A stretch of 44,459 bases of DNA from a virus: the IMG/VR virus record IMGVR_UViG_3300010300_000001. The stretch is one strand, 5' to 3'. Each line of letters opens with the position of its first letter. Position 1 is the stretch's first letter. Below are positions 11,701 to 30,746 of the stretch, piece by piece. The translations under genes were made by a program, and so were the position numbers. The notes under the pieces were generated by a model that saw nothing but the letters and a program-made list of their open reading frames with translations, was not told the DNA's origin and did not search any database.

Positions 11701-13518
11701 GTCGGCTTCATGCACGGCGAGCAGAACGATGGCTCAGACGAGCACTCTGTCCAGTTGATTCAGGAGCAGATAGGTGTGGTCCGCGAGCTCAACATCGCCG
11801 TGACTGGCACGGGCCTTACTGCGCCGACGGCTTTCTCGGGAGCGGAGGACACGCCGGATGGCGGTTGGCTGGCTCGGGTGCCTGACGATCTTGATCGGTT
11901 GTCGGTAGACCCCGCCGTCGGCACCAAGATCCGGTTTGACTCTGCCAACAACATCTACCTGCCAGATACGACGCTCACTAGCGTCAACAGCATCGTGCGC
12001 CGCAGCAAGGACACTGGTTCTGTGCAATGGCGCTACTTGTTCCTGGGCAGCGAAACGGCCAACGCCGTCATTCCGCTTGGAGACCCGTTGTCGTACGCAG
12101 GCGCCAGCCTTGACGGGCCGGAGTTCGTGTTTGCTGCCAGCCGCAACGGGCCCATTGAGAACGACACTCTGTGGAAGCTGCGCATCCTGCGCGTTGACGA
12201 GGACCTGACCGGCCAGTTGTCTACACGCGAAGCTATCTACTTAGGTGTTTGCGGTGGCAGCGTGGTCAAGTTCGAGCGTAACGGAACGGCACAGGCCGTG
12301 ACCGGCGGGGACAACTTGTTTAGCGCCGGCACGCCGTACATCCAGACTGCGGTTGTGCAGCAGAAGGTGTTCTTCACGGACGGCATTTCTGCGCACTACT
12401 ACGACGTGGAGGAGGATGCGGTCAAGCCGTACATCAGTGAGTCGCGTGGGGCCCCGCCCGTGCGATTCCGTCTGCTGGCAAGCTGGCGCAACCGCCTGGT
12501 TGCTGCGCGGGTGGCTGGCGACGAGACCAACTGGTACATGAGCCGGTCGGGCGATCCGTTCGACTGGGACGAGAACCCGCCCATTGTCGATGCTCAGCAG
12601 CCGGTGTCTGGCGATACCAGCAAGGGCCGGGTGGGCCAGGCCCCCGACGTTATCAATGCCCTGGTGCCCTGGTCAGACGACCTGCTGATCATTGGTGGCG
12701 ACCGCAGTATCTGGCGTATGACGGGAGACCCGATGCAGGGTGGCCAGGTGGACCTGGTGTCAGACTCCACCGGCATGGCCTTTGGCTCGCCGTGGACCAA
12801 AGACCCCAACGGGACCCTGTACTTCTTTGGCTCTCGAGGCGGTGTGTGGCGTATGCCGCCCGGTGGCCTGCCTGAGCGCATCACCACGTACAGCATCGAG
12901 AGGCGGCTGCGAGACCTAGACCTCGGATCGTTCCGGGTGTCGATGGTGTGGAACTACTACGACGAGGGGCTGCACGTCATTCCGGTGCCGTACAACCTGA
13001 GCTCGGTGGACGAGGTGCGCAGCTGGTTCTACGACGCAAAGCACGACGCCTGGTGGGAAGATTCTTGGATGAGCTCCGGCAACGGCGTTACCGCCGTGCT
13101 GCTGGTTGATGGCGACCTGCCCGATGACCGCCGCGTGCTCATGGGCTGCCAGGACGGGATTGTGCGCTACGTGGACCCGGCCGCCGTAACCGACGACGAG
13201 TTCCCCATCGACAGCCAGGTCCTGATTGGGCCACTGATGGGCCCGTCTGCGGAGCATGAGTCTCGATTTACCCGCATGACTGGCGTGCTGGGCGCGACGC
13301 TGGGTCCTGTTTCCTACGAGGTGCTGGTAGGCGAGGACTACGAAACCGCTGAGGTGGTGGATGTCGGGTACTGGAACCCGGGACGCAACCCTATCTCGCC
13401 GGTGCGGTGGACTGGGCCGGCGGCATGGATTCGCCTTGCCTCTGCTGAAGCCAACGCGTGGGCGCTAGAATCGCTGCACGTGGACGTGATTCCGACAACC
13501 AGAAAGAGGACGCGATGA
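8713..13518 (+). CDS. Large tail protein (1601 aa) with a LamG/concanavalin-like middle region and a nozzle/beta-propeller-like C-terminal region
   Basis: TGATG overlap with the upstream gene. The middle segment ...LVTLVWHRDLAQDRCVVRVNGRHVDTFRG...FSIGCR resembles laminin-G-type lectin folds. The C-terminal third has repeated W/G/D-rich strands (WYMSRSGDPFDWD, LLIIGGDRSIWRMTGDP). Confidence 0.45.
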   Translation: MAQAEFPKRGLNDDTPFGEQPAMTTRDALNVRTIDPSTGRSRGAQRSGTTKFLQGALNGAQPVQALAQTMRPRNQFTLTNLGSNNLTTTTAASGSVEITGTITIRTAIPGFTVGDRVTISDGTTAITFEASFQDDNASDSSYVAWEANPNNAPLTMARFAQKINEQSFSIGAAVDSTNSSKVLLQNTDAGSGALGNVAIVVQEDLVTTDWAATGMSGGTGGGDDNTIEVEWQRRPADATETSWIELDGNNVWTITDRGVAELYNPDGVLVNSIAPRIPEGFTIVNRVAVASDSSVYLACKSDDGKESRVWRFYAQTDVYDEKWEYELPGTVRQLQAAFGALYVVSDCADIDGSEYENTPPGIFVGLTGLSLSTPLEAFRNECPMPVTSMDISNQGLVAMAHPAASKRGFRSASVETPASSAPDLWTPWDLTNYRERLYFWCRAEDAVDENGSLITDIGDRVGAVPEHRLSPPDGYELPYDDTDRRLVASSDRLAPSWRTENGGRPYLAFSANTAEGTSPSALAGTVLVSNGDNSVGNKGADPESKLPNQQRPIPSDDSLSWVTSFLLRLPSNTTDQQVFLSFEQGISGGPDFGIIINTEGGLYASTLVDGENSIWVDVDPRQLVADDINNSGDATSTKIVRYSDEPGRSGSARMALVTLVWHRDLAQDRCVVRVNGRHVDTFRGVDRWGGSNGNFSIGCRRAAADGVPADDVYENSSVEQWNSFTGRLYEWVTVLGDSNNGVTANLDEIPCPRPDAASGRGAIGGLDIGYADSGSVPHHDGRDNPTSATEVELLEGYLAHKYGVAYILPRSSSSGDPRSSFGYYEAHPFGGPGWLPEGPNATSKSAFYRRQWTNGMTFWSAGGNLIGGLTGAGMSSGVGWDGEARLVSGGKAQAKRGESLDNETSTAYRRTVFFGSRAVTGKCATATIDISASVSVGATLTLTDNSSIVTFEFTNTAPTPGNVRVDTSVTATSQDTKQRLIALEFLDRLDESALDIVGFMHGEQNDGSDEHSVQLIQEQIGVVRELNIAVTGTGLTAPTAFSGAEDTPDGGWLARVPDDLDRLSVDPAVGTKIRFDSANNIYLPDTTLTSVNSIVRRSKDTGSVQWRYLFLGSETANAVIPLGDPLSYAGASLDGPEFVFAASRNGPIENDTLWKLRILRVDEDLTGQLSTREAIYLGVCGGSVVKFERNGTAQAVTGGDNLFSAGTPYIQTAVVQQKVFFTDGISAHYYDVEEDAVKPYISESRGAPPVRFRLLASWRNRLVAARVAGDETNWYMSRSGDPFDWDENPPIVDAQQPVSGDTSKGRVGQAPDVINALVPWSDDLLIIGGDRSIWRMTGDPMQGGQVDLVSDSTGMAFGSPWTKDPNGTLYFFGSRGGVWRMPPGGLPERITTYSIERRLRDLDLGSFRVSMVWNYYDEGLHVIPVPYNLSSVDEVRSWFYDAKHDAWWEDSWMSSGNGVTAVLLVDGDLPDDRRVLMGCQDGIVRYVDPAAVTDDEFPIDSQVLIGPLMGPSAEHESRFTRMTGVLGATLGPVSYEVLVGEDYETAEVVDVGYWNPGRNPISPVRWTGPAAWIRLASAEANAWALESLHVDVIPTTRKRTR

Positions 13519-13778
13519 CCGGCCGGGCATTGTCAGGCTCCATGAGCCAGGCGTATGGCGCGAAAGACCCGCGGGTGCGGCGAAACGCGCAAGCGTCGCT
13601 AGTCGAGTCGCAGGTTCAGATTGATGCAACGCTGAAGGTTGATGATCGGCAGCGGCTGGGTGTAGCCGGTGCCTCGGACCCTGGGCCTGCGCCCACGGAC
13701 ACTGTCGCCAATCTTGCGGCATACATTGAAACGCTTGTATCTGGGCTGCGATCAGCCGGATTGATTCAGGAGGACTGA
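13515..13778 (+). CDS. Hypothetical virion protein (88 aa)
   Basis: The ATG at 13515 forms an ATGA overlap with the stop of the 1601-aa gene. The track start at 13458 is probably too far upstream. Confidence 0.5.
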   Translation: MTGRALSGSMSQAYGAKDPRVRRNAQASLVESQVQIDATLKVDDRQRLGVAGASDPGPAPTDTVANLAAYIETLVSGLRSAGLIQED

Positions 13779-13779
13779 C

Positions 13780-14607
13780 ATGGTGTTGGGATCATTGTTT
13801 GGGAAAGACGGTCTAGACCTCTTCGGCCAAGGCGCGCAAGAAAAGGCCAACAAGGCCAATTTGCAGCAGCTCAAGAACATCCTCAATGAATTGGGGTATG
13901 GTCCCGACGCAGACCCATATTCGGCCTATGCCCAAACTACGGCCCTGTACGGTGATGCCGCTCAGGGACTGAAGAATCTGACTGGTAGCGCGTTCAGAAC
14001 AATTGGCAGGGGCCGTAGTGTTGGCCAGGCCACGTTCAAGGAGTCCATCGCGGCGCTCGAAGCCGGGTTTGCTCAAGGGCAGCAGGGCCTGCAAGACTCG
14101 ATTGCCGCCACCATTGAAAGCCAAGTTGCCATGCAGAAGCAGGCCATGGCCGCAGCGGCGCAGCAGGGTATGGGTAGTGGCCTACGCGGCACGCCGCAGG
14201 GTGCGCAGATGCGGGGTCTAATCGCCGACGCTACGCGCTCGAGCTCGCAGGCATTTGCTGACCTAGCCAGCCAGAGGGGCGCGTTGGGCGCGCAACAAGG
14301 CCAGATGATGGGCCAGGCGTACCAGCAGTTTGGCCAGGACCAGATGGCCAGTTACGCGCAGCAGGCACAGTTGCAGCAGAACCTTGGCACGCAACTAGCG
14401 CAGCTATACAGCAACCAAGCACAGGCTTACACGGACATAGCCGCCTTGCGTGCAGATGCTCGGAGCGGCTATCAGCACAAAGCTGGCCCGTCGCCTCTTA
14501 GTCAGATCGGACAGCTGGCCGGCGGCATTGGCGCTATGGCTATAGGGTTCGGGGGGCTCGGGGGAGCAGGAGCCGCGGGAGCAGCAGCCGGGGCAGCAGG
14601 AGCGTAG
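13780..14607 (+). CDS. Gln/Ala-rich internal virion protein candidate with a Gly/Ala hydrophobic C-terminus
   Basis: AGGAGG 6-7 nt upstream of the ATG. The C-terminus GGIGAMAIGFGGLGGAGAAGAAAGAAGA is glycine-zipper-like. Confidence 0.4.
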   Translation: MVLGSLFGKDGLDLFGQGAQEKANKANLQQLKNILNELGYGPDADPYSAYAQTTALYGDAAQGLKNLTGSAFRTIGRGRSVGQATFKESIAALEAGFAQGQQGLQDSIAATIESQVAMQKQAMAAAAQQGMGSGLRGTPQGAQMRGLIADATRSSSQAFADLASQRGALGAQQGQMMGQAYQQFGQDQMASYAQQAQLQQNLGTQLAQLYSNQAQAYTDIAALRADARSGYQHKAGPSPLSQIGQLAGGIGAMAIGFGGLGGAGAAGAAAGAAGA

Positions 14608-14609
14608 AC

Positions 14610-15698
14610 GTGGTAGACATCATTCATCAAAGCGGTTTCGGGTACGCGATGCAGGGCTTGGCTGACTTCGTCAAGCCTCTAGCCGAGGGCCTCGAGAAGG
14701 GCATCGACCTCAAAGAGAAACGGGAAGCTCAAAAAGAACGCAGCCAGCAGCGCGAGGCGATGCAGGGCATGCAGGCGTACATGCAGCATCTAGCGCGGGG
14801 CGAGAACCCGTTTCAGCCGCAACCTGGCCGCGACTGGCTGGACCCGCGACTGGACCCGGACATCATGCGCCTCAAGATTATGGCCGGGGACCGGGCCGGA
14901 GAGATCGACAACCTGCTGACCCCGATTGCTGAGCAGAACAAGCAGGGATTCTACTCAGGCGAGCTCCAGAACACGTTGCACGGCGCCGTTGCTGCGGGGA
15001 TGATGTCTGAGCATGAGGCCCAAGTAGCGCTACAAAGCGCGGAGCAGAGCGGTGACTATCAAGGCGCATACGACCTGGCCTTGCAGGGCATCGGTGAGGC
15101 TGAAGTGCGGCAGAAGGCGCACCAGACTTTGGAGATTGAGGCCGGTGCCATTGAGATGCAGCTCAGGCAAATGGGCGCAAATGCGCCTTACCCTGCCGTG
15201 GCCCACCTGGGGCGCATGAAGGCGCTCCTGGCTAATCCGCAGGCTGACGTGAATGTCGAGGCGCTGACCGGCGAGTTCTACGAGTTGATGTCAACGCACT
15301 ACCGCGAGATGCTGAAGCCAAGAGCCGATGCGTTTGGGATTCCGGCGCCGGCTCGCGGGCTGCCGTTGTACTACGATGTGGTGGGCTACCCTGAAGGGGC
15401 GCGGCCAGGCACGCCGTCACCCCCTCCGGCTCAAGGGCCGCAAGCTGGGCAACCGCAGCCGCAGGCTGAGACCAGCGGCGGGCAGCTGACAGGTGGGCAG
15501 CAACAGGCAACAGGACCCGCCAGCCAGGCCGCGACAATTACTGGCATGCTAAACGCTTTGCAGAACCAAAAGCCGGCCGCCATTGGTGTGTCTGAGTTCA
15601 CAAGCGATTACGAAACTAGCAACGTGTCTCCGCTGGGCCTTCGCGGCAACGTGCCCGGCAGCTATTACGGGCCGCCGAAGCGAAAGCGGAAGGATTAG
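14610..15698 (+). CDS. Internal virion protein candidate (362 aa)
   Basis: GTG start 3 nt after the upstream stop. Helical, Q/E-rich N-terminal half and P/Q-rich C-terminal part. Precedes the giant gene. Confidence 0.4.
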   Translation: MVDIIHQSGFGYAMQGLADFVKPLAEGLEKGIDLKEKREAQKERSQQREAMQGMQAYMQHLARGENPFQPQPGRDWLDPRLDPDIMRLKIMAGDRAGEIDNLLTPIAEQNKQGFYSGELQNTLHGAVAAGMMSEHEAQVALQSAEQSGDYQGAYDLALQGIGEAEVRQKAHQTLEIEAGAIEMQLRQMGANAPYPAVAHLGRMKALLANPQADVNVEALTGEFYELMSTHYREMLKPRADAFGIPAPARGLPLYYDVVGYPEGARPGTPSPPPAQGPQAGQPQPQAETSGGQLTGGQQQATGPASQAATITGMLNALQNQKPAAIGVSEFTSDYETSNVSPLGLRGNVPGSYYGPPKRKRKD

Positions 15699-15700
15699 GC

Positions 15701-18700
15701 ATGGCGACAGTCCAAGAGCCTCAGGACTTTACTGCGTTTGCTGACCGCTACTGGCAGGTCAGGGGCAGTGGCGGCCCTATTGGTGATGAGCAACTTCGTC
15801 CGCTGCTGGACGAGTTTGGCTTGCCGTACTGGTCTGGCATGGAGGCGGCGCTAGACGAGGGCGTCGGCAGGACCAAAGACTTTCGGACTGTTGTTGAAGA
15901 ATCGGAGCTGGCTGATTACCTGCCGTTCTTCGCTGGGGCGGCTCAGGTTGACGAGCTTCTTCAGATCAGAAGCGCAGCGAATGCGGTAGCCGAGGGCACC
16001 GCTACGCAAGAGCAGGAAGATGTGGTTATCCGCTACATGGTGGATATGGCCACGCCTGGCACGTGGGGCGGCCAAGTTGCTTCGCTGCTGGTTGACATGC
16101 CTGCATTCATGGGTGAGTTTGCAGCTAGTGGCGGCGTTGCATCTTTGCTGAAAACGGGCGGCAAGAAGGTTGCGGGTAAGCTGCTTCGAGAGACCATTGA
16201 CCAAGCGGCGCAAAAGCAGGCGGCCGGTGGCGTGATGAAATCGCTGGCCAAGCGGGGCGTCAACGTCGGTACTCACTTTGGCGTTCAGATGGGGCTTGGT
16301 GGAGTCGGCGGGCAGCGCATCATGGCCAGCACGCTACAGCGCACGCTGGGCCAGGCGGGCATGGTTTTGGATGAGAACCAAGCTGGCGAGCTCGAGGTGC
16401 TGATGAGCAGCACTCTGCCGCAGATCGAGGAGTCGCTCGACATTGGTATCACCGACTACGCCATTGAGGTGGCGTCCGAGATGAGCGGCGGCGCTATTGG
16501 CAAGGTCGTGCCTATCGACAAGCTGACCGGCATGGTGCTGCGAGGCATCCAGGCGCGTGCATTTGCCAAGGGAGCTCAAAAGTACGGCGTGGACAAGGCC
16601 ATGAACTTCCTGGCCAAGTCTGGGTGGAACGGCCCAATGAACGAGGTCTTGGAGGAGGTAGCCGGCAACGCAATGCGTGCAGCTGCCCCGAACCTCGAAG
16701 AGACTGCCGATGACATCATCCCGTCGTGGGAAGAGTTCACGGCAATGTACGTCGGCTTTGCGGTTCCGGGTCTGGCCGGCGGTGCTCTTGGGTTAGGGAG
16801 TGACTCAATGACCAGCGGGCCCGGCAAGCTGCCTAAGGGCGCAGCCCGATTTGAAACCGCCGAAGAGGCTGAGCAGGCCGGCCAGCGCATGGGCCTTGTC
16901 GAGCCTGTCGCATCGGAGTCGGCCGATGGCTTTGGCCTGCGGCGATACGCAGACGGACCCCTGGTAAGCGAGCAGGAGGTAAGTGCGCGCGTTCCGGCCC
17001 GGGCCCCGGCCCCCGACGCTGACGTGGACGCTGACGCTGAGCCAGGAACTGTAGATGCCGAGGTTGTAGATACTAAGGCGCCGCCCGCGGAAGAGCTCTC
17101 GGAGGAGGACGAAGACTTCCTGCTACAGCCGGAATACGAAGATTCGGATGTTCTGTACCAGCAGCTTGATGCTGGCGCGGAGGGTGAGTATCGCCGGGAG
17201 CGCGCGGCCGTGGTCTTTGATGAAGCTGAGCGGTACGCATCGGCCTCGGGGGAGCGCGCATACGTTGTCACGGACCCAAGCAACAGGGCTCTAAACTACG
17301 CGAGTCGCCAGGAGGCAATCGACCTGGTGCAGTCTGGCCAGGGCAAAGTCCTGGCCGTGCTCGAGCCTAGCCGCGAAGCTGAGCCTGCGCGCACAATCCT
17401 TCGCGACGCCCAGCAGGTGTGGGGGGCTAACGCGACCATTGTTGAGCCGAATCTGGAGCGCGAAGACGTGCGCGCAGCGCAAGAGCTGGCTAAGCGCGCC
17501 GGCGTGCGGTTTGTGATGGTTGATCCCGGCGAGGGCGCTGAAGACGCTCCGCTGGGCGCCTCGGCTCGCGTTGGGACAATTATGGTGAACGCGCGCAACA
17601 AGCCGCCGGCCGACGAGATTGCCGCGCATGAGCTTGTGCATGAACTGCGCCGCAGCAACCCGGAGCTCTTTGACCAGCTTGTCGATGTCCTTCAGCGCAC
17701 CGCCGGGGAGCGCATCGAAGAGGCGCGCGGCAGCCGGGATATGTCGGACGAAGAAGCGATAGCTCGGTACGCGGAGCCGCTCGCCAAGCTGATGCGCCGA
17801 ATGGGGACGCCACAGGGCCGTAAGCTGCTAAGGGACATTGCCCTTGAGCAACCGAGGCTGTTTGACAAGATTATTGACACTGTCCGCCGCATCCTGGCCA
17901 AGATCGGCCTTGTGCAGTCTCCGGTTATGGAGCGCAAGCGGCTGCGCATGCAGGAGCAGCTGGCCGATCTGGGCGAGCGCGTCACGCAGGAAGATGTGCG
18001 CGCCGCGCGATTGCTGCACGACTCGCTGACCTTTATTGGCAAAGCGCGCCTAGCCGGTTTGCTGACGGGCGACGAGCAGGGCGAGGTGAAGCTGCGCGAG
18101 GCTTACCTGGAGGAAGATCCTGACCGCGCCTTACGCTATCGCGACGACGACATGCTGGGGCAGAGCTGGGCGGAAGACAAAGAGCGCAAGCTGATTCTTG
18201 CGGACGGCACCGAGATCCCGTTTCGCTACAGAGTCGTCAATGCCAGCGACCTGCTGCCTAGCCATGACGCACGCAGAGGGTTTAGGCAGAACCCGGGCGG
18301 TGATAAAAACGAGCGCACGTATCACATTGAGAGCCAGTCAAAGGCGTCGCGCAAGAACGTCAGGGATATTGCCAGCGACCCGCAGCCGGAACGCATCTTC
18401 AATACCGCGCCAGACCCCAACACCGGGCCGCCTATCGTGACCCTAGATGGGGTTGTGCTGGGCGGCAATGCGCGCACCATGGGCTTGCAGCTGCTGTACC
18501 ACAATGCGTGGGAAAAGCAGGAGAACGTGGACGCCGCTGAACGCGTGGCACAAGCGGCGGTTCAGTTTGCCGCACGCGAGATGGGCGAAGAGGCCGAAGC
18601 TGTGGCTATTGAGCTGGAGCAACCCGTCATTGTTAGAGAGCTCCAGATCGCCACCATCCCCGGCGCGCTGTCGCGCGAACTAAACAAGGATGCCGCGGCG

Positions 18701-21700
18701 CCGCGCACACCGTCTGTGGACGCCGTGTCTCGCGGCTCTAAGGTGTCGGAGCAGGCCGCGCAGATGATCGCCCAAACCATTGGCGAGGGCACTCTGGGCG
18801 ATGTCCTAAACAGTCGCTCCAAAACCGCGTCGATGCTTAGCGCGCTGGTCAAGTCCGGCGCCTTCGACGAGGCTGAAATTGAGTCACTCATGGAGGGCCA
18901 GAGTGGCCTGCTGACTAAGGCCGGCCGCGAGCTGGTTGAAAAAACCATCATTGGCTCGCTTGTCACGGACGTGCAACGTCTGTCGGCTTTGCCTGCAAGT
19001 GCGCGAGGCAAGATGATTCGGTCGCTGCCGTCGCTGATGCGCCTGTCGGCAAGCTGGCCGCAGTTCAAGCATCACCTGGCGGCCATGTTCGATGGGCTGG
19101 CCACGATGCGCGGGGCCGACACTAATCTGGCAACGGAGGTTGACCAGACTAGCCTAGAGGACGAGCCGTGGAAGCGCGACATGGTGGCCGTCGCGCTGCT
19201 AAGCGAATTCATGGGCCGGGGGCCCAAGTCCTGGAACGAATTTGCCAAGGACCTGGTGACGGCCGTTACCGAGGCCAACATGCAGCAGGGCGCCATGTTT
19301 GGCGAGCCTGTGGCGGCTGATCCGGTAGAGGCGCTGTTGAAGCTGGTTGGCGATACACCGATGGGGCGCCGGCTTGCGCAGGCCAGCAACTTTGACCCGA
19401 CCGTTCAAATGCAAGAGGCCGAGGCGGCCCCGGAGGCGGCCCCGGAGGCGGAGGCCGAGGTTGACGCGCCTGCCGCCGAAGAGCCTGCTGCCGAAGAGTC
19501 CGTTGCCGCCGAACTGCCGCAGGTGCCGGCCAGAAAGCGGCGCTACTCGCCTGCCACTGAGCAAATGGCCGACGCGCTCAGGCAGCTCGCGCTGGAGCCG
19601 GAGTTGGTTGCCGGCAGGTCGTTTGGCCGCCTTGAAGATGCAGACATTGCATTCCTGGCTCGCCAGGCGGCTGCGGCCGTGGCTGAAGAGTGGGGCACGT
19701 CTGAGTTTGTGGAGTTCGCTACAGAGCTTGCCACAAAGCATTCTCAGATCGACTTCAACACGGCCATAGCTTTTATCCATGGCGTTGACGCCCTGGCCCG
19801 CTCTGCGGGATCGCAACTGCCTGGCTTTGATGTAAGCGGCACCATTGAGGCCATGCTGAGCTCGGTGGCTGTGGGGCGCGAGCGCTCTGAGCTCGAGACC
19901 GCTGGCCTGGTGGGCAACTACGTCAGGACCACGCTGCAAGCGGAAATGGAGTCCCGTCTCGGGGGCGAGCAGGAAGCCGATGCCGAGGCCCGCGAAGCGC
20001 CGGACCTTGCTTGGTTTGATGCTTCGCGCAAGAGCCCAGCGTTCTCGCAGCTAGGCGAGCTTGCGGACGAGCAAGATGGCGTTCGCAAAGGCGACGTGGT
20101 GGTGGTGCTTGACGGCACCCGCATGCGCATTGATCGGGCAAGCACGGTCAACCGTGACCGGGACGTTATGCGCTACGATAGCGGCGAAGGCCGCATCGAA
20201 GGCACGGAAGGCTCGTTTAGCCCTGGGAGCAAGCGGCCTGTGCGCCGCAACATGCAGCAGCCCGTGCTAGTTATTCCCAAGCGCTTTGTGGACAACGACG
20301 CGTACCTTGCGCTGTCTACAGGCGACAAGCGGCCGGCTGTAGATACAAGCAGCCAGGAGGCGTACGAGCGCAGCGTGGACGACGCGATGAACTTCATTGC
20401 AAACAACTTGCTGCGCGAACCGTCCAAGGCTCACCGCAAGGCCGACCGGGAAACTCTACTCAATCTGCGCAACGAGCTCGCTGGCCAGCAGGCCGCAGCC
20501 CCTGAGGCGGCTAAGCCGGCGGCAGACGCAAGCTACGAGCAGATTGAGCGCGAGTACCTGCAAAGCATTCGTGATGCGCTGGGCGTCGATGAGCAGCAGG
20601 CGGCCGTGCTGTCTTACCTAATGGATTCAATGGGCCTCGACCGCAGCACCATTGACTTTATGCGAGGCAGCACGCCAGACCCCCGCTTGCTCAACCAGCG
20701 AGTGTGGCATGGCTCAAGCGCGGCGTTTAGCAGGTTCGACACCGGGTTTATTGGCACCGGCGAAGGCGAGCAAGCCTATGGGTGGGGCCTGTATTTTGCG
20801 TCGCGCAAATCGGTTGCGGAATGGTATCGCGTACAGATTGCGGGTCGCGGAAAGGTAGATCAGCCGCACCTGCTTTTGCAGCAGCGCACCAGGAGCGACG
20901 AGCCTGGCGCAGTTGTTTATAACTATGAAGAGCTTCGCTTCCTCGGCCAGCGCATTCAGGACGCGTGGCGGGAGTGGTTCAGAGCCGCCAGCCAGTCGGA
21001 GACGGGCCCCCCTAGCGCAATGGAGCAGATGGATTGGCTCAACCGCGCGTTGAAGTCAATGCTTGCCGATGCGGAGGCTGAGCTTGCGCGGCAGCGAGCC
21101 GGCGGCCCGAACACGTCGCCAGTGCTTTTGCGCGCAGCCGAGAGAATCGCTGGCAGAATGCGCGATGTCGTCAACGGCACTAATGACGTTGGGTTTGAGG
21201 TGACGCTGGCTGGTCATAGAGGGCAACTGTACGAGGTCGAGCTCCATCCGGCCGAGAGCCAGTATTTGCTCTGGGAGGCAAACGCCTCAGGCCGTTTCTA
21301 TCTCGGTGGTGGAAAACAGAGTCGCCGGGTGCAGACCGCGCTTCAGCCGATTGTCGAGCTTGTGTTTACAAGCCAGGGGCGTCGCGTGCCACGCTACCTT
21401 AGTGGAGAAGAGTTGTACAAGGAGCTGGTCTCCTACTTTGAGCAGAGGCCGCTGCCCAAAGGCCAGTCTGCGCAAATGGCAGCGTCGCTCAAGCTACTTG
21501 AATCGGGTGTGCGCGGCATCAAATACGTAGACGGGGTAAGCCGGAAGAAAGTGGGCCCGCTCCACTACAACTACGTAGTTTTCGACGCGGCAGACACGCG
21601 AATGACGCGTTTCTTCCAGCAGGGCAACGAAGTGCAGGGGCAGGTTGAGTTGGCCCAGGATGGCCGCGCAATCATCACTGGCTTCGAATCTGCCAACTTC

Positions 21701-24700
21701 AGTACCGGCGTCCATGAGATTGCGCACGTAGCTCGCCGCCGCCTGGTCAACCGCGAGGTGCCAGCCAGCGAGCGCGAAGGCATTACGTCGCAGGACATCC
21801 TAGAGGCCGAAACGTGGTGCGGCGTCGAGGACGGCAACTGGACTGAAGAGGCCGAGGAAAGGTTTGCCCGCGGCTTCGAGAAGTACCTGATTGACGGCAA
21901 GGCGCCGAACGCGCAGCTGCACGCGATGTTCCGCGTCATTGCCCAGTGGATGCGTCGGCTGTACGAGCATGTGCTGACCCGCACGGCCGGCACGCCGTAC
22001 GAGGTCAAGCTGACCCCCGAAATGACTCGCGTGTATGACGCTCTGGTGACGCGGGGCCAGTACACCGGCCCAGAACAGGAGGGCGAGGTTCATGGCCCTG
22101 TCAAGGAGGTCGATGGAGTCAGGCCAGTTCGGTGGGTTGGAGGCAACGTGGATGTGGCGTACAACCGCCGCTACGACATTGTTCACCGCACGTGGAACAA
22201 GGACCCGCAGAAACGTAACACGATCATCTACGTGTTCGACGTTGACCCGTCGCGCAACTACTCGCCGGCCGACGTGTATCGAATCGCCTACACCAGCGGC
22301 ATGATCCCCAAGGGCGGTGGCAGCACAGGCGCCGAGGAGATTCAGACCCCGCACGGATTTTATGTCCGCCGGCAAAAAACCAACCGTGGGCTCAAGAACG
22401 ATTGGGTGCTGAATCCTGAGTTCCAAGAGGAAGATGCGGCGACTGAGGCTGCCGCGCCGGACGCCGAGGGCCTGGCCGGAAGCGAGGCAGACCCCCAGCC
22501 TGATGGCGGGCAGGATCTGAGTCGGTGGTTTGAGCGGCGAAGAAAGCAGCAGATTGATTTTCTGCGGCCGTTCATCGACGCCGTGGTTGAAGACTTCATC
22601 GGCACCTTGCCCGAAAAGTCTCGCGCCAGTGCCCGACAAGCGCTTAGCGGCACAACTTTCAGCAGCGACTTGGCCGTGGGTGATCGCGTTGTGGCTGCTG
22701 CGGCCTTTCGTGGCTACCAGTACGTAGACACGTACCCGGATGGGCCCGCCGATGCCCCGGCGCTTTACAGGGACGGGATGGTTGTTGCCGACCGCAACAA
22801 CTACACCGCGACGGGCATGAAGCTATTCGCCTACATTGCCAGGCAGCGCACCCGCGAGCTCGAGGAGGCCATTGCGGGCGCCCCTAGCTTCTGGCGCGAA
22901 GGGGCAATCGAGGTCGCGCAGCCGGGGTACAGGGTGGTTGGTCTAGTTGACCAAAAGACGCATGAGCTCCAGCAAGACGGAAGCTGGCTGGAGATTGACC
23001 CAGACGCTGAGTCCTACACGGGCCTAGAGCTTCCTGCGCGCCCTGAGGGCCTGCCTGACTGGCACCCGCCGCTAAACGAGCACGACGCGTTTGGCGATAT
23101 GACCCGGCCCGCTGAGCCTGAAATGATCGGGCCGGTGATGCCGGAGGATGAACGCCGGGCTCTGGAAGCTGCGCAAATCCTGATTGAGCGCGAGCGCCGC
23201 AAGCGCCGTAAGCTGCCGCCGGGCGAGCAGTCAAACCTCTTCGGCCCTGGCGAACCCGTTGACCTCGACCCGCCTAGCGATTCTGGCGGCGATCGTGGCT
23301 TGCAGCCGCCGGCTTCGTTTGAGGGCGGGCCCCGGCCCGGACCGGAGGACGTGGAGGGCGTGCGCCGCTCGTTTGCTTTGGGCGCGCAGCCCAGGGTCAA
23401 GCGCGCAAACGTCAGTGGCGACCCGAACGTGCGCAACTACGTGCGCGCCAGCGACGTGCAGATGGGCCGCAAAGGCGAGTACATGGCCAGCATCAAGCAG
23501 GCCGAAAAAGACGCGACTCGCATGCTCGAGGAGATGGGGGAAGAAGCCTTTGTTGAAAACTTCCTGACCAGGGCCCGCGAGGGAGTGCTGCACGATCAGG
23601 TGGAGTTCCTTGCAGCCCGACGCATTAGCGCCAACCTGATCAGAGATGCCCTGGGCATGGGGGGCACAGACAGGCATGCGCGTGCCATTGAGTTCATGTG
23701 GGCGTACCGTGCCGCGAGGGGCCAGGTGGCTCGTTCGCTTGGCATGGTGCGCGACGTGTTCCCTCGTACCGCACGCGAGCAGCTGGCCGATGTCTTGGCC
23801 ATGCCTAGCCAGCGAGTGCGCCGCCGGTTCCTGAACCTGGAAAAGAAGCGCCGCGAGCTGCGAGAGAAGGAGCGCGCACAGGCCAGCGAAGCCAGTCGCA
23901 AGCGCCTGCGAAAGGAGCTCGAGCGCATTGAGCGCCAGATCGACGCAGAGCTGAAGCGCGAGTCTGAGCGCATGCAGAAAGCGCTGGAGAAGCTGCAAGA
24001 AGATGGGTTGAACCCCGAGACCGTGATTGAATCCGACCTTATGGATCCCAACACGCGCGGCCGTATCGCCAAGGCTATTGCTGAGGCCAGGTCGAACAAG
24101 TGGGATTGGTTCTTGGCATACCAGTACAATGCAATGCTGTCGTTTGCCGGAACGCACGCGCGCAACATTGCCGGCAACACGCTAAACACTCTCCAAGAGC
24201 AGTTTGTGCAGCGTGGGGTTGAGGCGGGCATTGCCCGCGCCCTGCGGCTGTTTGCTCCTGGGAACTTTGAGGCGGCGCCGAAGTTTGGCGAGTTCAAGGT
24301 AATGGCCCAGATGCTGCCGGAGGCGTTTATGCAAGGCGCCCTGAACGGGTGGCTGGGCTACAAAAACAACGTCAGCGCCACGGCCCTGTACTTCCAAGCC
24401 ATGGGCATCGAGGTGCAGGACATGAGCCGTATCGAGCAGGACATTGCGCGGCAGGTGGGCAGCGGAAAGCTGCTGTACCTTGACTACCTGGGCACCCGCC
24501 TGCTGCAAGGCATGGATGACTGGGCCAAGACGTTCGTGGCTATCATCGAGATGCACGCCCGCTCGTATCGCGAGGCAGTCAACATGGGGCTCAAGAATCC
24601 CAAGGACATTGAGAAGCAAATGCGCATCTTCATGCTCGACGTGCAGCACCCGCTGCATCAAGAGGCGTGGACTGCGGCGCTCAAAACTGCGTTCCAGTTG

Positions 24701-26032
24701 CCGCCGGGCGAGTTCACTACCGGCTTGCTGAACCTGCGCAACAAGGCTGACTCAGCGTGGGATGTCCCGATGGGCACTCTCATGTTCCCGTTCGTGAACA
24801 CGCCGACCCAAATCTTCCAAGCGGGCCTGCGCAAAATCCCGCCGTCCAAGCTGATTCAGATGGCTGTGCGAGCCGTGCGCACCGTCAAGGCTGCCCGAGC
24901 CGATGAAGGCGCCGAAGATGTCGCCAAGGGGCGCACCGTGTACACGGGCGCGGAAGGCCAGCGGCAGTTGGTTGAGGATCTGGCCGATTTGGTGATTGGT
25001 GTCGGCGTGTTCTGGACCGTCATTGCCCTACTTGCTGGAGACGACGACGACCCGCGCCCGAAGATTACTGGTTCGCTGAAGCCGTGGGGGTCAGAGCGGG
25101 AGCTCCAGTACCGCGCTGCGCCGGCAATGTCGGTGCGCTTTGGGGACAGTTACTACTCGTATGCCGGGCTCGAGCCCCTTGCCACGTATGCGGCGCCGGT
25201 CGTTGACGCAGCAGAGCGCTGGCTGGGTGCTGTAAATGGCGGAACTAAGGAGCAGATCCTTGCTGCCAACACTAACGTGCTCAACTCCATCGTCGGTCTG
25301 GTTCGAGACAAGACCTACCTCCAGGGCTTTGGCGAGCTGGTGGACTTGGTGCAGTCTGGAGGCAAGTCACAATCGCTTGCAGATTTCATGTCCGACACGT
25401 TCTTCACGCGAATGGTGCCCAACGTCATTCGCGGAACGGCCAGAGAGTCGGACGAGTACCTGCGCCTAAGCCGCACCGCAGAAAAGTCGCTGCTGGGCCG
25501 CACGCTCAACGTAGACAAGCTGTTGCCTGTGCCTCCGCGAGTTGCGCGCTACCTGGGCATTGACCCTGCGCCGCCCAAGCGGGATATCTGGGGCCGCCCC
25601 ATTCCTCGAGGCGTGCAGATTGACTGGTCGTTTGGCGGGCTTGCCGGCCACCTGATGAAGGAGGCCGTGGGCCCCAAGAAGATGAACCCGGTGATGAAGG
25701 CCGACCTGGCCATCATGGCCTGGAACAGTATGGTGGAGCGCGGAGAGGCGATTGATCCCCGGACAGGGGACGTTGCAGAGCCGCTAAAGTTTGCTGGTAA
25801 GCGCGTCGGGCAGAACTGGTCGTCCGAAGAGGTTGACTTCGTAATGCGCGAAGGCGGCGGGCGGGCTCAGCGCGCTATCCAGGGGCTTGTTATTCGAGAC
25901 GTATCCAATCCCACGTGGTACGAAATGCAGGCGATTCGGAAGATACTGGATAAATCGTATGACGCTGCCATGAAGCAGGTGCGCGCGCAGCGCCGTGTGC
26001 GCAAGGCCCAGGAGCTCTCAACCACCAGGTAG
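15701..26032 (+). CDS. Giant multidomain (polyvalent-type) protein, 3443 aa, probably virion-borne
   Basis: Single uninterrupted ORF of 10,332 nt with a GGAAGGA Shine-Dalgarno. Motifs: HELVH (nt 17627-17641); ParB-like PPIVTLDGVVLGGNARTMGL (nt about 18431-18487); WHGS...GWGLYFAS...LHYNYVVFD (nt 20705-21595); HEIAH (nt 21713-21727) followed by EERFARGFEKYLIDGKAP; basic coiled coil (nt about 23828-24010); transmembrane-like LVIGVGVFWTVIALLAG (nt about 24983-25039). Confidence 0.85.
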   Translation: MATVQEPQDFTAFADRYWQVRGSGGPIGDEQLRPLLDEFGLPYWSGMEAALDEGVGRTKDFRTVVEESELADYLPFFAGAAQVDELLQIRSAANAVAEGTATQEQEDVVIRYMVDMATPGTWGGQVASLLVDMPAFMGEFAASGGVASLLKTGGKKVAGKLLRETIDQAAQKQAAGGVMKSLAKRGVNVGTHFGVQMGLGGVGGQRIMASTLQRTLGQAGMVLDENQAGELEVLMSSTLPQIEESLDIGITDYAIEVASEMSGGAIGKVVPIDKLTGMVLRGIQARAFAKGAQKYGVDKAMNFLAKSGWNGPMNEVLEEVAGNAMRAAAPNLEETADDIIPSWEEFTAMYVGFAVPGLAGGALGLGSDSMTSGPGKLPKGAARFETAEEAEQAGQRMGLVEPVASESADGFGLRRYADGPLVSEQEVSARVPARAPAPDADVDADAEPGTVDAEVVDTKAPPAEELSEEDEDFLLQPEYEDSDVLYQQLDAGAEGEYRRERAAVVFDEAERYASASGERAYVVTDPSNRALNYASRQEAIDLVQSGQGKVLAVLEPSREAEPARTILRDAQQVWGANATIVEPNLEREDVRAAQELAKRAGVRFVMVDPGEGAEDAPLGASARVGTIMVNARNKPPADEIAAHELVHELRRSNPELFDQLVDVLQRTAGERIEEARGSRDMSDEEAIARYAEPLAKLMRRMGTPQGRKLLRDIALEQPRLFDKIIDTVRRILAKIGLVQSPVMERKRLRMQEQLADLGERVTQEDVRAARLLHDSLTFIGKARLAGLLTGDEQGEVKLREAYLEEDPDRALRYRDDDMLGQSWAEDKERKLILADGTEIPFRYRVVNASDLLPSHDARRGFRQNPGGDKNERTYHIESQSKASRKNVRDIASDPQPERIFNTAPDPNTGPPIVTLDGVVLGGNARTMGLQLLYHNAWEKQENVDAAERVAQAAVQFAAREMGEEAEAVAIELEQPVIVRELQIATIPGALSRELNKDAAAPRTPSVDAVSRGSKVSEQAAQMIAQTIGEGTLGDVLNSRSKTASMLSALVKSGAFDEAEIESLMEGQSGLLTKAGRELVEKTIIGSLVTDVQRLSALPASARGKMIRSLPSLMRLSASWPQFKHHLAAMFDGLATMRGADTNLATEVDQTSLEDEPWKRDMVAVALLSEFMGRGPKSWNEFAKDLVTAVTEANMQQGAMFGEPVAADPVEALLKLVGDTPMGRRLAQASNFDPTVQMQEAEAAPEAAPEAEAEVDAPAAEEPAAEESVAAELPQVPARKRRYSPATEQMADALRQLALEPELVAGRSFGRLEDADIAFLARQAAAAVAEEWGTSEFVEFATELATKHSQIDFNTAIAFIHGVDALARSAGSQLPGFDVSGTIEAMLSSVAVGRERSELETAGLVGNYVRTTLQAEMESRLGGEQEADAEAREAPDLAWFDASRKSPAFSQLGELADEQDGVRKGDVVVVLDGTRMRIDRASTVNRDRDVMRYDSGEGRIEGTEGSFSPGSKRPVRRNMQQPVLVIPKRFVDNDAYLALSTGDKRPAVDTSSQEAYERSVDDAMNFIANNLLREPSKAHRKADRETLLNLRNELAGQQAAAPEAAKPAADASYEQIEREYLQSIRDALGVDEQQAAVLSYLMDSMGLDRSTIDFMRGSTPDPRLLNQRVWHGSSAAFSRFDTGFIGTGEGEQAYGWGLYFASRKSVAEWYRVQIAGRGKVDQPHLLLQQRTRSDEPGAVVYNYEELRFLGQRIQDAWREWFRAASQSETGPPSAMEQMDWLNRALKSMLADAEAELARQRAGGPNTSPVLLRAAERIAGRMRDVVNGTNDVGFEVTLAGHRGQLYEVELHPAESQYLLWEANASGRFYLGGGKQSRRVQTALQPIVELVFTSQGRRVPRYLSGEELYKELVSYFEQRPLPKGQSAQMAASLKLLESGVRGIKYVDGVSRKKVGPLHYNYVVFDAADTRMTRFFQQGNEVQGQVELAQDGRAIITGFESANFSTGVHEIAHVARRRLVNREVPASEREGITSQDILEAETWCGVEDGNWTEEAEERFARGFEKYLIDGKAPNAQLHAMFRVIAQWMRRLYEHVLTRTAGTPYEVKLTPEMTRVYDALVTRGQYTGPEQEGEVHGPVKEVDGVRPVRWVGGNVDVAYNRRYDIVHRTWNKDPQKRNTIIYVFDVDPSRNYSPADVYRIAYTSGMIPKGGGSTGAEEIQTPHGFYVRRQKTNRGLKNDWVLNPEFQEEDAATEAAAPDAEGLAGSEADPQPDGGQDLSRWFERRRKQQIDFLRPFIDAVVEDFIGTLPEKSRASARQALSGTTFSSDLAVGDRVVAAAAFRGYQYVDTYPDGPADAPALYRDGMVVADRNNYTATGMKLFAYIARQRTRELEEAIAGAPSFWREGAIEVAQPGYRVVGLVDQKTHELQQDGSWLEIDPDAESYTGLELPARPEGLPDWHPPLNEHDAFGDMTRPAEPEMIGPVMPEDERRALEAAQILIERERRKRRKLPPGEQSNLFGPGEPVDLDPPSDSGGDRGLQPPASFEGGPRPGPEDVEGVRRSFALGAQPRVKRANVSGDPNVRNYVRASDVQMGRKGEYMASIKQAEKDATRMLEEMGEEAFVENFLTRAREGVLHDQVEFLAARRISANLIRDALGMGGTDRHARAIEFMWAYRAARGQVARSLGMVRDVFPRTAREQLADVLAMPSQRVRRRFLNLEKKRRELREKERAQASEASRKRLRKELERIERQIDAELKRESERMQKALEKLQEDGLNPETVIESDLMDPNTRGRIAKAIAEARSNKWDWFLAYQYNAMLSFAGTHARNIAGNTLNTLQEQFVQRGVEAGIARALRLFAPGNFEAAPKFGEFKVMAQMLPEAFMQGALNGWLGYKNNVSATALYFQAMGIEVQDMSRIEQDIARQVGSGKLLYLDYLGTRLLQGMDDWAKTFVAIIEMHARSYREAVNMGLKNPKDIEKQMRIFMLDVQHPLHQEAWTAALKTAFQLPPGEFTTGLLNLRNKADSAWDVPMGTLMFPFVNTPTQIFQAGLRKIPPSKLIQMAVRAVRTVKAARADEGAEDVAKGRTVYTGAEGQRQLVEDLADLVIGVGVFWTVIALLAGDDDDPRPKITGSLKPWGSERELQYRAAPAMSVRFGDSYYSYAGLEPLATYAAPVVDAAERWLGAVNGGTKEQILAANTNVLNSIVGLVRDKTYLQGFGELVDLVQSGGKSQSLADFMSDTFFTRMVPNVIRGTARESDEYLRLSRTAEKSLLGRTLNVDKLLPVPPRVARYLGIDPAPPKRDIWGRPIPRGVQIDWSFGGLAGHLMKEAVGPKKMNPVMKADLAIMAWNSMVERGEAIDPRTGDVAEPLKFAGKRVGQNWSSEEVDFVMREGGGRAQRAIQGLVIRDVSNPTWYEMQAIRKILDKSYDAAMKQVRAQRRVRKAQELSTTR

Positions 26033-29378: not shown

Positions 29379-30062
29379 CTATTGCTGGTCCGGGTCCATA
29401 GACTTGGCGGCGCCGTCAAACAGGTCGATCACGTTCACCATGTCTTCGCTGGTAGGCGGCGCATCCTTCTGCGGTTCGGGATCAGGCGTCTCGACCTGCT
29501 GCTCCAGCGGGTGCACTTCAGCCTTGACCTCGCGCTCCTGCCACTGCTCGACCTCATCCTCGAGCATGATGCCTCCGATGCCGTAGGCTAGGCGGGCGGC
29601 CTGACAGAACGCCCTGTTTCGCAGCATACGGTTCGGCATGTTCCGCCATGGCTCCGTGTTGCGCTTGCACTCCTCCAGGTACTCCCGCACGGTCGTGGGC
29701 TTGGCCTTGCGCTTGTCGTGCACGCTGCACTCGACCCAGCTTCCGTCATCTGCATAGGCAAAGGTAGTGCCGTCGTGGTTGGGCTGGCGGGCGACCAAGG
29801 CGGCCCAGCCGTCGTAGCCCATCATGGGGACAATGCCCCCACCCTTGGCCGGGAACGCGTACAGCTGCTTGAGGAACGGGTTGAGGCCGTACTGGTCAGC
29901 CACGGCAAGGAAAGCCATGACCTCTTCTTTCTTGGCCTGCGGTGACGGCATGACCGTCCGCATCACGGTGTCGTAATAATCCTTTGCGCTAACGCCGGTG
30001 GCGGAAGCCAAACGGTGCAGTAGCGCGCCCGGAGCGCCGTTAGTAGTAGTCAGTTCAGTCAT
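29379..30062 (-). CDS. recT: RecT-family single-strand annealing protein
   Basis: MMGYDGWAALV..., PWRNMPNRMLRNRAFCQAARLAYGIGGI are typical RecT motifs. The probable start at 30062 overlaps the upstream stop by 8 nt. Confidence 0.8.
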   Translation of the reverse strand: MTELTTTNGAPGALLHRLASATGVSAKDYYDTVMRTVMPSPQAKKEEVMAFLAVADQYGLNPFLKQLYAFPAKGGGIVPMMGYDGWAALVARQPNHDGTTFAYADDGSWVECSVHDKRKAKPTTVREYLEECKRNTEPWRNMPNRMLRNRAFCQAARLAYGIGGIMLEDEVEQWQEREVKAEVHPLEQQVETPDPEPQKDAPPTSEDMVNVIDLFDGAAKSMDPDQQ

Positions 30063-30324
30063 TGGTCTCGTACGGGTAAACGGTGAACGCCCCATCGGGC
30101 AAGTCGGGGTCAGCGGTGATTTGAATGCCGAGTGCTGTGAACGTCGTCACGGCAGTCAGGTCGCCGGGGATGTAGATGTCCCTGATCGTCAGCTCGCGCA
30201 GCACGCCGCTAACGTCCCTGGTCGGAATTTTGATGCAGGCTACCTGCGGGACGCCGCGCTCATCCATGAGGTTGCAGTAGCGGTTGAGCGTCTCGAGGAA
30301 GGTGATGGCGGAGGAGTTACTCAT
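30055..30324 (-). CDS. Hypothetical protein (89 aa)
   Basis: GGAGG 6 nt upstream of the ATG at 30324. The track start at 30354 lacks a ribosome-binding site. Confidence 0.55.
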   Translation of the reverse strand: MSNSSAITFLETLNRYCNLMDERGVPQVACIKIPTRDVSGVLRELTIRDIYIPGDLTAVTTFTALGIQITADPDLPDGAFTVYPYETND

Positions 30325-30350
30325 CGTTCGCCTCCAGCTCAGCAGTGCGG

Positions 30351-30746
30351 TCACTCACCCTGCACCTCCTCGGCGTGGATCTGCACCAGCTCGCGGAGAA
30401 GTCCACGGTCGACGGTGATCCAGCTGTAGCGGGGCAGCGGGCGCTCGCCGAAGCCGGTCTCGACGGCGTCTAGGGTCAGGCTCAGGTCCGAGCCGTCCAT
30501 CGGCAGCAGGCCGAGCCCTCGGGCACGCTTCAGCAGCGCGACCGTCTGCTCGAGCGGCGCCTCCTGGATCGCGGCCACCACGGCCTGGCAGGCCATGGCC
30601 TTGCGCTGGCTGTCCGTCCAGCCGGCCTCGGCGGGCCACTCAGACCAGTCCGAGCCGGTGTCCAGGGGTTCGTCGATGACCTGGGCAGCGCTCGCCAGAG
30701 CGAAGCCGAGGACGCCTGCGAGGGCGAGCTGCGCCGGGGAGCTCAT
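30351..30746 (-). CDS. Hypothetical protein with a signal-peptide-like N-terminus
   Basis: The N-terminus is MSSPAQLALAGVLGFALASAAQV. ATGA overlap with the exonuclease stop. Confidence 0.55.
   Translation of the reverse strand: MSSPAQLALAGVLGFALASAAQVIDEPLDTGSDWSEWPAEAGWTDSQRKAMACQAVVAAIQEAPLEQTVALLKRARGLGLLPMDGSDLSLTLDAVETGFGERPLPRYSWITVDRGLLRELVQIHAEEVQGE

Follow-up and report, generated by a model that had tools for sequence, protein, structure and literature searches.

The stretch of viral DNA analysed here, the IMG/VR virus record IMGVR_UViG_3300010300_000001 with a length of 44,459 nucleotides (in the following termed the window), contains on its plus strand a single gene at 15701..26032 that encodes a giant protein of 3443 aa. 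This protein is probably a packaged and ejected internal virion protein (IVP) of the T7 gp16/IVP-D class, the carrier module of which has been extended with a cargo of polyvalent effector domains; a probability of roughly 0.75 is assigned to this reading of the sequence. A preceding sequence-only reading of the window had proposed a polyvalent-type architecture, and this proposal was largely supported, as unrelated domains are combined in one chain with linkers between them and several of the proposed modules were returned by Pfam. With respect to the individual Pfam families, ddrB-ParB scored above its cutoff, whereas LPD14 and ART-PolyVal remained near or below theirs and two orphan regions were left unmatched.

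Packaging and injection of the giant protein are predicted, and this prediction gains support from three properties of its C-terminal carrier module, namely the match to phrog_6651, the alignment with P-SSP7 gp16 and the similarity to internal virion protein models in BFVD. The carrier occupies approximately aa 2560-3443 (23378..26029, plus strand). When 1.84 billion cluster representatives were scanned with this region by HMMER, a family of 1019 representatives was obtained at E <1e-3, with 180 at E <1e-30. Among the 140 relatives that were scored, the carrier ends at a median distance of 18 aa from the C-terminus (60 aa or less in 104 of them), and the proteins hosting it range from about 0.7 to 5.6 kaa, 63 of the 140 having a length of at least 2000 aa. 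The family phrog_6651, annotated as 'internal virion protein', matches aa 3143-3232 of the giant protein with an E value of 1.4e-9 and was matched by all 22 aligned carrier members (best E 1.2e-25). Moreover, the hhalign comparison of the carrier with P-SSP7 gp16 ('T7-like internal core protein'), which is treated as an IVP-D homologue (PMC4819975), resulted in a probability of 96.4% and an E value of 1e-9 over 352 columns. These profile comparisons indicate that the C-terminal 850 aa or so represent one conserved helical module that is homologous to phrog_6651 and P-SSP7 gp16.

The AlphaFold2 model of the carrier (pLDDT 78.6, pTM 0.77) is nearly all helical, and a search of BFVD with this model gave 35 matches at E <1e-3. 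The matches include proteins annotated as 'Internal virion protein' of the Synechococcus phages S-CBP3, S-RIP1 and S-CBP2 and of the Pelagibacter phage EXVC018P, as well as C-terminal pieces of giant proteins with ART-PolyVal, MuF-C, LPD3 or nuclease domains (E 1e-9 to 4e-21). The giant protein also resembles the IVP-D class in being large and extensively alpha-helical and in having its gene as the final one of the internal-protein block, behind the tail-tube genes. The sequence-only reading had delimited a C-terminal module of about 640 aa with a membrane-like helix; the length has to be extended to about 850 aa, whereas the helix was recovered at aa 3095-3113 (24983..25039, plus strand) as the sole strongly hydrophobic helix (Kyte-Doolittle value 2.28), followed by the motif DDDDPxPKITGS that is conserved in two carrier alignments. 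Likewise, the basic coiled coil listed before as a module of its own exists as a basic, charged helical stretch at aa 2690-2780 but lies inside the carrier, where the composition scan and the AlphaFold2 model place highly charged basic long helices at aa 2690-2790 (23768..24070, plus strand).

Other searches with the C-terminal module were less productive. Sequence searches of the PDB with the protein and with the C-terminal profile returned nothing, and a link to the solved ejectosomes of T7 and cyanophage A4 was thus unconfirmed. No similarity was detected between the carrier profile and P-SSP7 gp15, and the profile comparison with the giant protein of the phage genome vir555 was negative. 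Neither tblastn nor a word-index protein search with the module gave a hit, and the profile version of the word-index search retrieved only ten uninformative proteins. In comparisons of the carrier profile with the Bcep22/933W-type carrier, the region at about aa 3990-4120 of JC1 gp69 was aligned at non-significant E values of 0.02 and 0.5, and each time the hydrophobic helix and a DDD(D) sequence coincided with aa 3095-3125 of the giant protein. This correspondence could be convergent or could reflect very remote kinship, and it is regarded as a lead and not as homology.

The amino acid composition of the giant protein is also consistent with ejection. Only one cysteine is present among its 3443 residues, in comparison with a cysteine content of 0.65% in the other 22 main ORFs (open reading frames) of the phage (binomial P 3.7e-9), and the 150 best relatives out of the 1019 family representatives contain 49 cysteines in 318,355 pooled residues. 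Cysteine is completely absent from the proven or accepted ejected podovirus proteins T7 gp15 (0/747), T7 gp16 (0/1318), P-SSP7 gp15 and gp16, N4 gp50 (0/3500) and JC1 gp69 (0/4515), while the tail proteins of these phages have an ordinary cysteine content; the comparison comprises a small set of our own and does not constitute a validated classifier. Cysteine scarcity fits a protein that is unfolded, threaded through a narrow channel and passed across the periplasm, and the near-absence of this residue may serve as a marker by which ejected proteins can be recognised from their composition.

The genomic position points in the same direction. The giant gene shares its strand with the terminase, portal, capsid and SU10-like adaptor genes, lies downstream of them and closes the plus-strand virion block, so that its earlier placement at the end of the virion module was correct. 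The same order is found in a relative of 3994 aa (P0011, contig L008), where a capsid-like gene is followed by a small gene, an SU10-like adaptor gene, a gene for a large protein, three smaller genes and the giant gene. In place of the cargo present in the window, the giant protein of this relative carries a DarB-like methylase-helicase.

Within the cargo, the ParB-like region named by the sequence-only reading was borne out by the family ddrB-ParB (PF18763), which matched aa 835-980 above the gathering score (53.5-56.6 bits vs 27.6, E 3e-14 to 4e-15) and over profile positions 2-119 of 121; phrog_5143 also matches this region. The DdrB-like ParB domain was delimited to aa 831-982 (18191..18646, plus strand). 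According to the architecture counts, which were obtained with iterated hidden Markov models (HMMs) and refer to the 150 best relatives mentioned above, it occurs in four of them, and the motifs PSHD, ER(T/P)Y (ERTY in the giant protein) and GGNAR are kept in a four-sequence alignment. ParB domains of the DdrB type are described as having an active-site Arg, an Asp/Asn ending strand 2 and a conserved Tyr (PMC5512222), and the motifs observed here appear to fit these features, the assignment of residues to structural elements having been made by eye. The domain is accompanied by an extension at aa 1000-1205 (18698..19315, plus strand) that matches no family and adjoins ParB also in the relatives P0006 and P0087.

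A divergent ART-PolyVal-like ADP-ribosyltransferase (ART) is predicted at aa 1666-1973 (20696..21619, plus strand), with counterparts in 16 of the 150 relatives. An alignment with 16 relatives shows the pattern HGS...GWGLYF...NYV(I/V)FD, in which H1670 (HGS), Y1697 (GWGLYF) and D1962 (NYVVFD) are conserved; such an H-Y-D configuration, with H on strand 1, Y on strand 2 and D on strand 5, has been described for the ARTs of polyvalent proteins (PMC5512222). The domain contains an insert of about 118 aa (aa 1719-1836, nt 20855-21208) that is absent from some relatives. The ART-PolyVal (Tox-ART-HYD2) family PF18760 matched with E values of 9e-6 to 2.5e-6; after excision of the insert it reached 28.7 bits, which is still below its cutoff, and faint echoes of PARP and DUF3990 appeared. 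Since the Pfam score is below the cutoff and covers half of the profile, the domain is called divergent ART-PolyVal-like and not a certified member of the family. The AlphaFold2 model of aa 1655-2140, which includes the second HExxH module described below, displays confident beta-strand blocks (pLDDT >90) in the ART core, but Foldseek found no hit in the PDB below an E value of 0.7, and the ART and zincin folds are therefore unconfirmed. The PARP-like H-Y-x region proposed before is consequently retained as a conserved H-Y-D triad, whereas ART-PolyVal stays below the Pfam cutoff and the per-domain structural comparison suggested for its verification did not return the fold.

The ART region is also related to the giant protein of vir555, as deduced from hhalign (E 1e-42) and from a tblastn match with 29% identity (E 7e-28); in total, tblastn of aa 1-3000 produced just two weak matches, to vir555 and to a Rhodobacteraceae phage. 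The genome vir555 (L001, BK063671, Caudoviricetes sp.), to which a Methanomicrobiales host is assigned, encodes the respective protein of 1974 aa at 10537-16461, following genes annotated as internal virion protein. This protein has the ART and the second HExxH module in common with the giant protein of the window (hhalign E 1e-42 and 1e-11) and does not share the C-terminal carrier.

Two putative zincin-like modules are characterized by HExxH motifs. HExxH-1 extends over aa 573-755 (17417..17965, plus strand) with HELVH at aa 643-647 and E684/E685, and it was found in 43 of the 150 relatives, mostly within the first 900 or so residues, the two His, the Glu of the motif and the downstream Glu being conserved at 0.87-0.93 in the alignment. 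HExxH-2 covers aa 1985-2133 (21653..22099, plus strand) with HEIAH at aa 2005-2009, EE at 2052-2053 and the sequence ERFARGFEKYL; it is present in 15 relatives, and phrog_9880 matches aa 1968-2116 with an E value of 1.4e-18. In both modules the HExxH motif is followed after 37-45 residues by EExxA...E, and an HMM built from the relatives of HExxH-2 also detects aa 636-696 of the same protein; by these sequence comparisons the two modules are considered to be paralogues. The combination of two His with a Glu on the next helix is known from the MPTase zincin of polyvalent proteins (PMC5512222), a domain that also has a three-stranded sheet and is frequent in these proteins without being obligatory. 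The two HExxH regions and the FARGFE.YL motif noticed in the sequence-only reading are accordingly present, with a downstream Glu in both modules and ERFARGFEKYL near aa 2054, but a zincin fold was not confirmed by Foldseek. Furthermore, the HExxH-1 profile was aligned by hhalign with aa 3416-3535 of JC1 gp69 (HEAFH...EE) with a probability of 93.9% and an E value of 1.6e-7, which indicates that HExxH-1 is homologous to a module of this virion-proven protein.

The Gly-rich N-terminal region is present as well and comprises an LPD14-like module at aa 73-362 (15917..16786, plus strand), a conserved part of the chassis that an iterated HMM detected in 26 of the 150 relatives, in most cases close to the N-terminus. 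The family LPD14 (PF18827) missed its curated cutoff marginally, with 26.0 bits vs 27 and an E value of 1e-5 at aa 263-365 (profile positions 19-123 of 136). No similarity was observed between the N-terminal module and gp14, gp15 or gp16 of T7 or P-SSP7. In nine relatives (P0134, P0039, P0073, P0012, P0054, P0008, P0141, P0125 and P0007) the first 60 or so positions of the module HMM also match in or near the C-terminal carrier, hinting that a Gly-rich element is repeated at the two ends of these proteins; such a repeat was not seen in the window protein.

The modules are separated by acidic or Ala/Pro/Glu linkers, as stated by the sequence-only reading: the sequence EAAPEAAPEAEAEVDAP and five further acidic or Pro/Gly-rich linkers divide the chain into blocks. 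The composition scan located an acidic Ala/Pro-rich linker at aa 364-474 (16790..17122, plus strand) and the Ala/Pro/Glu linker containing EAAPEAAPEAEAEVDAP at aa 1220-1288 (19358..19564, plus strand). Two regions of the chain are orphans. The first, aa 1289-1655 (19565..20665, plus strand), consists of two blocks set apart by acidic linkers (aa 1411-1460, aa 1588-1628); it matches no Pfam, PHROG or NCBIfam family and has no counterpart in the 150 best relatives, and a word-index search with aa 1225-1655 gave no hits. The second, aa 2140-2560 (22118..23380, plus strand), includes the blocks aa 2140-2231 and aa 2285-2500 together with acidic and Pro/Gly-rich linkers and is likewise devoid of family matches and of counterparts in these relatives. 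The NCBIfam scan of the complete giant protein returned nothing.

The comparison with the relatives gives a picture of conserved ends and exchangeable middle cassettes, as far as can be judged from the sequences. In 14 giants that were scanned with Pfam, the cargo comprises canonical ART-PolyVal domains (up to seven stretches), ResIII/Helicase_C, Eco57I/N6_Mtase, SNF2, the PBECR5 nuclease, a 2H/Acb1-like phosphoesterase and Sigma70_r4. One relative of 4608 aa (P0137, contig L009) combines the 2H/Acb1-like phosphoesterase (PF23474, 26.9 bits vs 27) with a helicase, a methyltransferase and Sigma70 region 4; its gene is located upstream of an SU10-like portal gene and not at the end of the module.

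On this basis, the following course of infection can be envisaged, the individual steps being modelled on the biology of T7, N4 and P1 as summarised in PMC4819975 and PMC5512222. A few copies of the giant protein would be built into the capsid core by means of the C-terminal module. At infection, the chain would be unfolded and expelled through the portal and the tail ahead of or together with the DNA, and the helical carrier, which includes the one strongly hydrophobic helix and the DDDDPxPKITGS motif, would help to form a conduit across the cell envelope. The cargo would then enter the cytoplasm, where the two zincin modules might cleave the chain at the acidic linkers, and the ParB-like NTPase/nuclease and the ADP-ribosyltransferase might subsequently act on nucleic-acid or protein targets of the host, leading to protection of the phage genome or to takeover of the cell. 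As injected proteins act ahead of any phage gene expression, they are prime candidates to counteract restriction, CBASS-type systems and further host defences.

A number of results weigh against the interpretation of the giant protein as an ejected carrier with enzymatic cargo. Packaging is a prediction for the window phage and its close relatives, and P-SSP7 gp16 was itself assigned from synteny and size. The carrier gave an hhalign probability of 0.2% with T7 gp16, a single-sequence template of low sensitivity; it has no direct similarity to the C-terminus of N4 gp50, and comparisons with the Bcep22/933W-type carrier, performed with a single sequence and a five-sequence profile, were not significant (profile-profile probability 0.1%). 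None of the PDB structures matched the AlphaFold2 models of the carrier or of the ART/HExxH-2 region in Foldseek. Unlike T7 gp16 and JC1 gp69, the window protein does not contain a muralytic domain according to the Pfam scan. With respect to the cargo, ART-PolyVal (PF18760) matched from aa 1667 below its cutoff (26.9 bits vs 31.2) and covered the N-terminal half of the profile only (positions 8-67 of 140). The zincin assignment is based on motif and profile conservation: Pfam MPTase-PolyVal matches neither HExxH module, just a faint Peptidase_M78 signal was obtained for HExxH-1 (E 0.097), and the AlphaFold2 model of HExxH-2 has no clear beta-sheet core. Approximately 800 aa of the giant protein are without any relatives in the searches of the family libraries, the 150 best relatives and the word index. 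Finally, self-cleavage and the targets of the cargo are conjectural parts of the proposed mechanism, in which our confidence is much lower than in the overall reading.

Part of these results would also be compatible with a polyvalent protein that is made late and not packaged, acting in the producing cell, for instance to exclude superinfection, to shut off the host or to protect the genome while it replicates, with the C-terminal module serving as scaffold or membrane anchor and not as a virion component. The genes preceding the giant gene are without recognisable internal-protein signatures, the carrier matches no solved ejectosome structure, and packaging is a prediction. This explanation is nevertheless unlikely in view of the assignment of the carrier to phrog_6651 and its alignment with P-SSP7 gp16, the position of the gene at the end of the plus-strand virion block with the same order in a relative, the near-absence of cysteine that is common to proven ejected proteins, and the occurrence of analogous giants in virions (PMC9144972). 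It is similarly improbable that the protein is a structural ejectosome or core component in which the enzyme domains persist as degenerate relics, providing bulk or spacer and delivering nothing catalytic. The scores of ART-PolyVal and LPD14 below the Pfam thresholds, the missing Foldseek confirmation of the ART and zincin folds and the large orphan or low-complexity parts would be expected of such relics, but the catalytic signatures are intact and conserved across relatives (the H-Y-D triad of the ART, the HExxH motif with its Glu in each zincin-like module, and the ParB residues GGNAR, SHD and Y), the ParB domain scores well above its threshold, clearly intact enzymes occupy the same position in relatives, and a spacer that takes up 23% of a 44-kb genome would be costly.

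Two further explanations were rejected. With its length close to that of N4 gp50 (3500 aa), an equal absence of cysteine and a podovirus giant as the counterpart, the protein might be suspected to be an N4-like virion-encapsidated RNA polymerase (vRNAP) of the 3500-aa class that is injected for early transcription. The four Pfam vRNAP domains (PF21894, PF21769, PF21867 and PF21624) that are present in N4 gp50 were all lacking in the window protein, RNA polymerase domains were found in none of 14 relatives scanned, no PDB chain (those of the N4 vRNAP among them) was matched by sequence, and similarity to the gp50 C-terminus was absent, which makes this assignment very improbable. The other explanation, an assembly or sequencing artefact fusing several genes, was prompted by the unusual length alone, and nothing was found in its favour. 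The ORF listing gives an ATG start for the giant gene, a Shine-Dalgarno-like GGAAGGA precedes it, and its translation is free of internal stops. The GC content at codon positions 1, 2 and 3 (about 0.7, 0.45 and 0.73) is even across every 1.5-kb slice, so that the entire frame appears to be coding, and with about 0.029 stops per codon expected from the base composition an open frame of 3443 codons is not a product of chance. Moreover, the identical 3443-aa protein is encoded on at least five contigs from independent samples and assemblers (including ENA ERZ27275004 and Logan SRR5216644 and SRR5468114), and the members of its 90% cluster originate from JGI/IMG, Logan and ENA; the objection of a frameshift or fusion, which had been named as a result that would speak against the single ORF, is thereby removed. 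Since relatives of 2-5.6 kaa also share the end-to-end architecture, the probability of an artefact is negligible.

The window carries an exact direct repeat of 123 bp (1-123 = 44337-44459), indicating that the assembly is circularly closed and has a length of 44,336 bp, of which the giant gene accounts for 23.3%; both the coordinates of the ORF and its share of about 23% of the genome were thus confirmed. The phage as a whole is very divergent, with a GC content of about 62%, and megablast of the giant gene against 50,697 phage records gave no match. In the PHROG scan of the other window proteins, families were assigned only for the terminase, portal, capsid, adaptor and the RecET module, and of ten other larger proteins that were scanned, none was recognised as an RNA or DNA polymerase.

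Within the plus-strand virion block, the gene at 7955-8713 encodes an SU10-like head-tail adaptor (Pfam SU10_adaptor, E 2e-6, 28.8 bits vs a cutoff of 27). It is directly followed by a gene (8713-13518, plus strand) for a protein of 1601 aa with an ordinary cysteine content (10 Cys) that matches no Pfam, PHROG or NCBIfam family; presumably it belongs to the nozzle or the tail, and a counterpart of 1285 aa is located at the same place in contig L008. The sequence-only reading had placed three internal-protein-like genes in front of the giant gene. These genes were not identifiable as internal proteins in Pfam, PHROG or NCBIfam, and the sole support for the claim is the complete absence of cysteine from the two larger products of 275 and 362 aa (13780..15698, plus strand; 13780-14607 and 14610-15698), which are predicted from this feature and from their position as candidate co-ejected internal proteins. 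On the minus strand, a RecET-type recombination module at 29379-31597 is made up of genes for an annealing protein that is RecT/Bet-like (phrog_252, E 1e-51) and for a protein resembling exonuclease VIII (phrog_412, E 7e-37), and DUF1353 was noted near this module in precomputed Pfam matches of an identical contig.

The giant protein and its more than 1000 relatives suggest that the gp16-class ejection protein widely serves as a vehicle for swappable enzymes. The family represents a ready catalogue in which counter-defence enzymes of a new kind can be sought, the two orphan regions among them, and cysteine avoidance provides a simple cue to ejected proteins in uncultured podoviruses. It is tempting, though rather speculative, to regard this very large and unnamed family as a modular effector-injection chassis that consists of a fixed LPD14-like N-terminal module, a zincin, a P-SSP7-gp16-like carrier and swappable cassettes, in which the orphan regions aa 1289-1655 and aa 2140-2500 would be new effectors in anti-defence or takeover and the avoidance of cysteine would predict ejection. 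These two orphan regions have no relatives in 1.8-5.8 billion proteins.

The design of the giant protein has already been described, and the window protein adds a new example to a known principle. Hardies et al. (2016, PMC4819975) reported that IVP-D homologues host lysozyme domains as well as domains bound for the cytoplasm, and listed H66 gp60 and BcepMigl gp69 as methylase-carrying IVP-D homologues. Like these extended IVP-D proteins, P-SSP7 gp16 and N4 gp50 included, the window protein is large, helical, practically free of cysteine and encoded at the end of a podovirus block of tail and internal-protein genes, and it follows the theme of PMC4819975 in that a carrier is fused to domains able to work solely in the cytoplasm. 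In contrast to T7 and P-SSP7, its cargo is located N-terminal to the carrier and is far larger, amounting to about 2500 aa. Polyvalent proteins, their processing by MPTase, DdrB-ParB domains and H-Y-D ARTs were described by Iyer, Burroughs, Anand, de Souza and Aravind (2017, PMC5512222), and the window protein resembles them in combining unrelated enzyme domains in one chain encoded among the late virion genes, with interspersed zincin-like HExxH modules and an LPD-type domain. It differs in the lack of a Pfam MPTase-PolyVal match and in the divergent ART subfamily with its 118-aa insert. The links to virions given in PMC5512222 are MuF, portal and the N4 vRNAP, and a gp16-like internal virion carrier is not mentioned in its main text, where the terms 'internal virion' and 'ejection' do not occur. 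P1 DdrB, the prototype of PF18763, likewise joins a DdrB-type domain of the ParB/Srx superfamily to a zincin-like peptidase within a protein that is associated with the head (PMC5512222), but in P1, a myovirus, DdrB stands alone as a much smaller protein and undergoes processing prior to packaging, whereas the corresponding domain of the window protein is a cassette in an ejection-protein fusion.

The precedent named by the sequence-only reading, the DarB-like giant proteins of Bcep22-type podoviruses, holds for the architecture and for the homology of HExxH-1 to JC1 gp69, while the carriers are not demonstrably homologous and a DarB-type dyad is absent. JC1 gp69 comprises 4515 aa and 22.1% of the genome and was detected with 51 unique peptides by mass spectrometry of CsCl-purified virions (PMC9144972); it is virion-proven, whereas the window protein is a predicted virion component. 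Like the giant proteins of this group (Bcep22 gp75, JC1 gp69), the window protein takes up about 22-23% of a podovirus genome, avoids cysteine and is encoded by the final large gene of its virion module. In the window, the giant gene is followed by a small plus-strand ORF of 92 aa before the direction of the genes reverses, whereas reverse-strand ORFs are found in JC1. Moreover, JC1 gp69 contains an N-terminal SLT transglycosylase, a methylase/SNF2-helicase dyad, LPD3 and an LPD38-containing C-terminus, none of which was found in the window protein by Pfam; this includes the C-terminal LPD38 module and the dyad of N6-adenine methylase and SF2 helicase that P0011 and P0137 share with JC1 gp69. 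Since the principle has been published, the present analysis is of value for the catalogue and for a clearly delimited example. Specific to this example are the combination of a P-SSP7-gp16-type carrier with this particular cargo, the 'front end' of N-terminal module and zincin, the divergent ART bearing an insert and the approximately 800 orphan residues.

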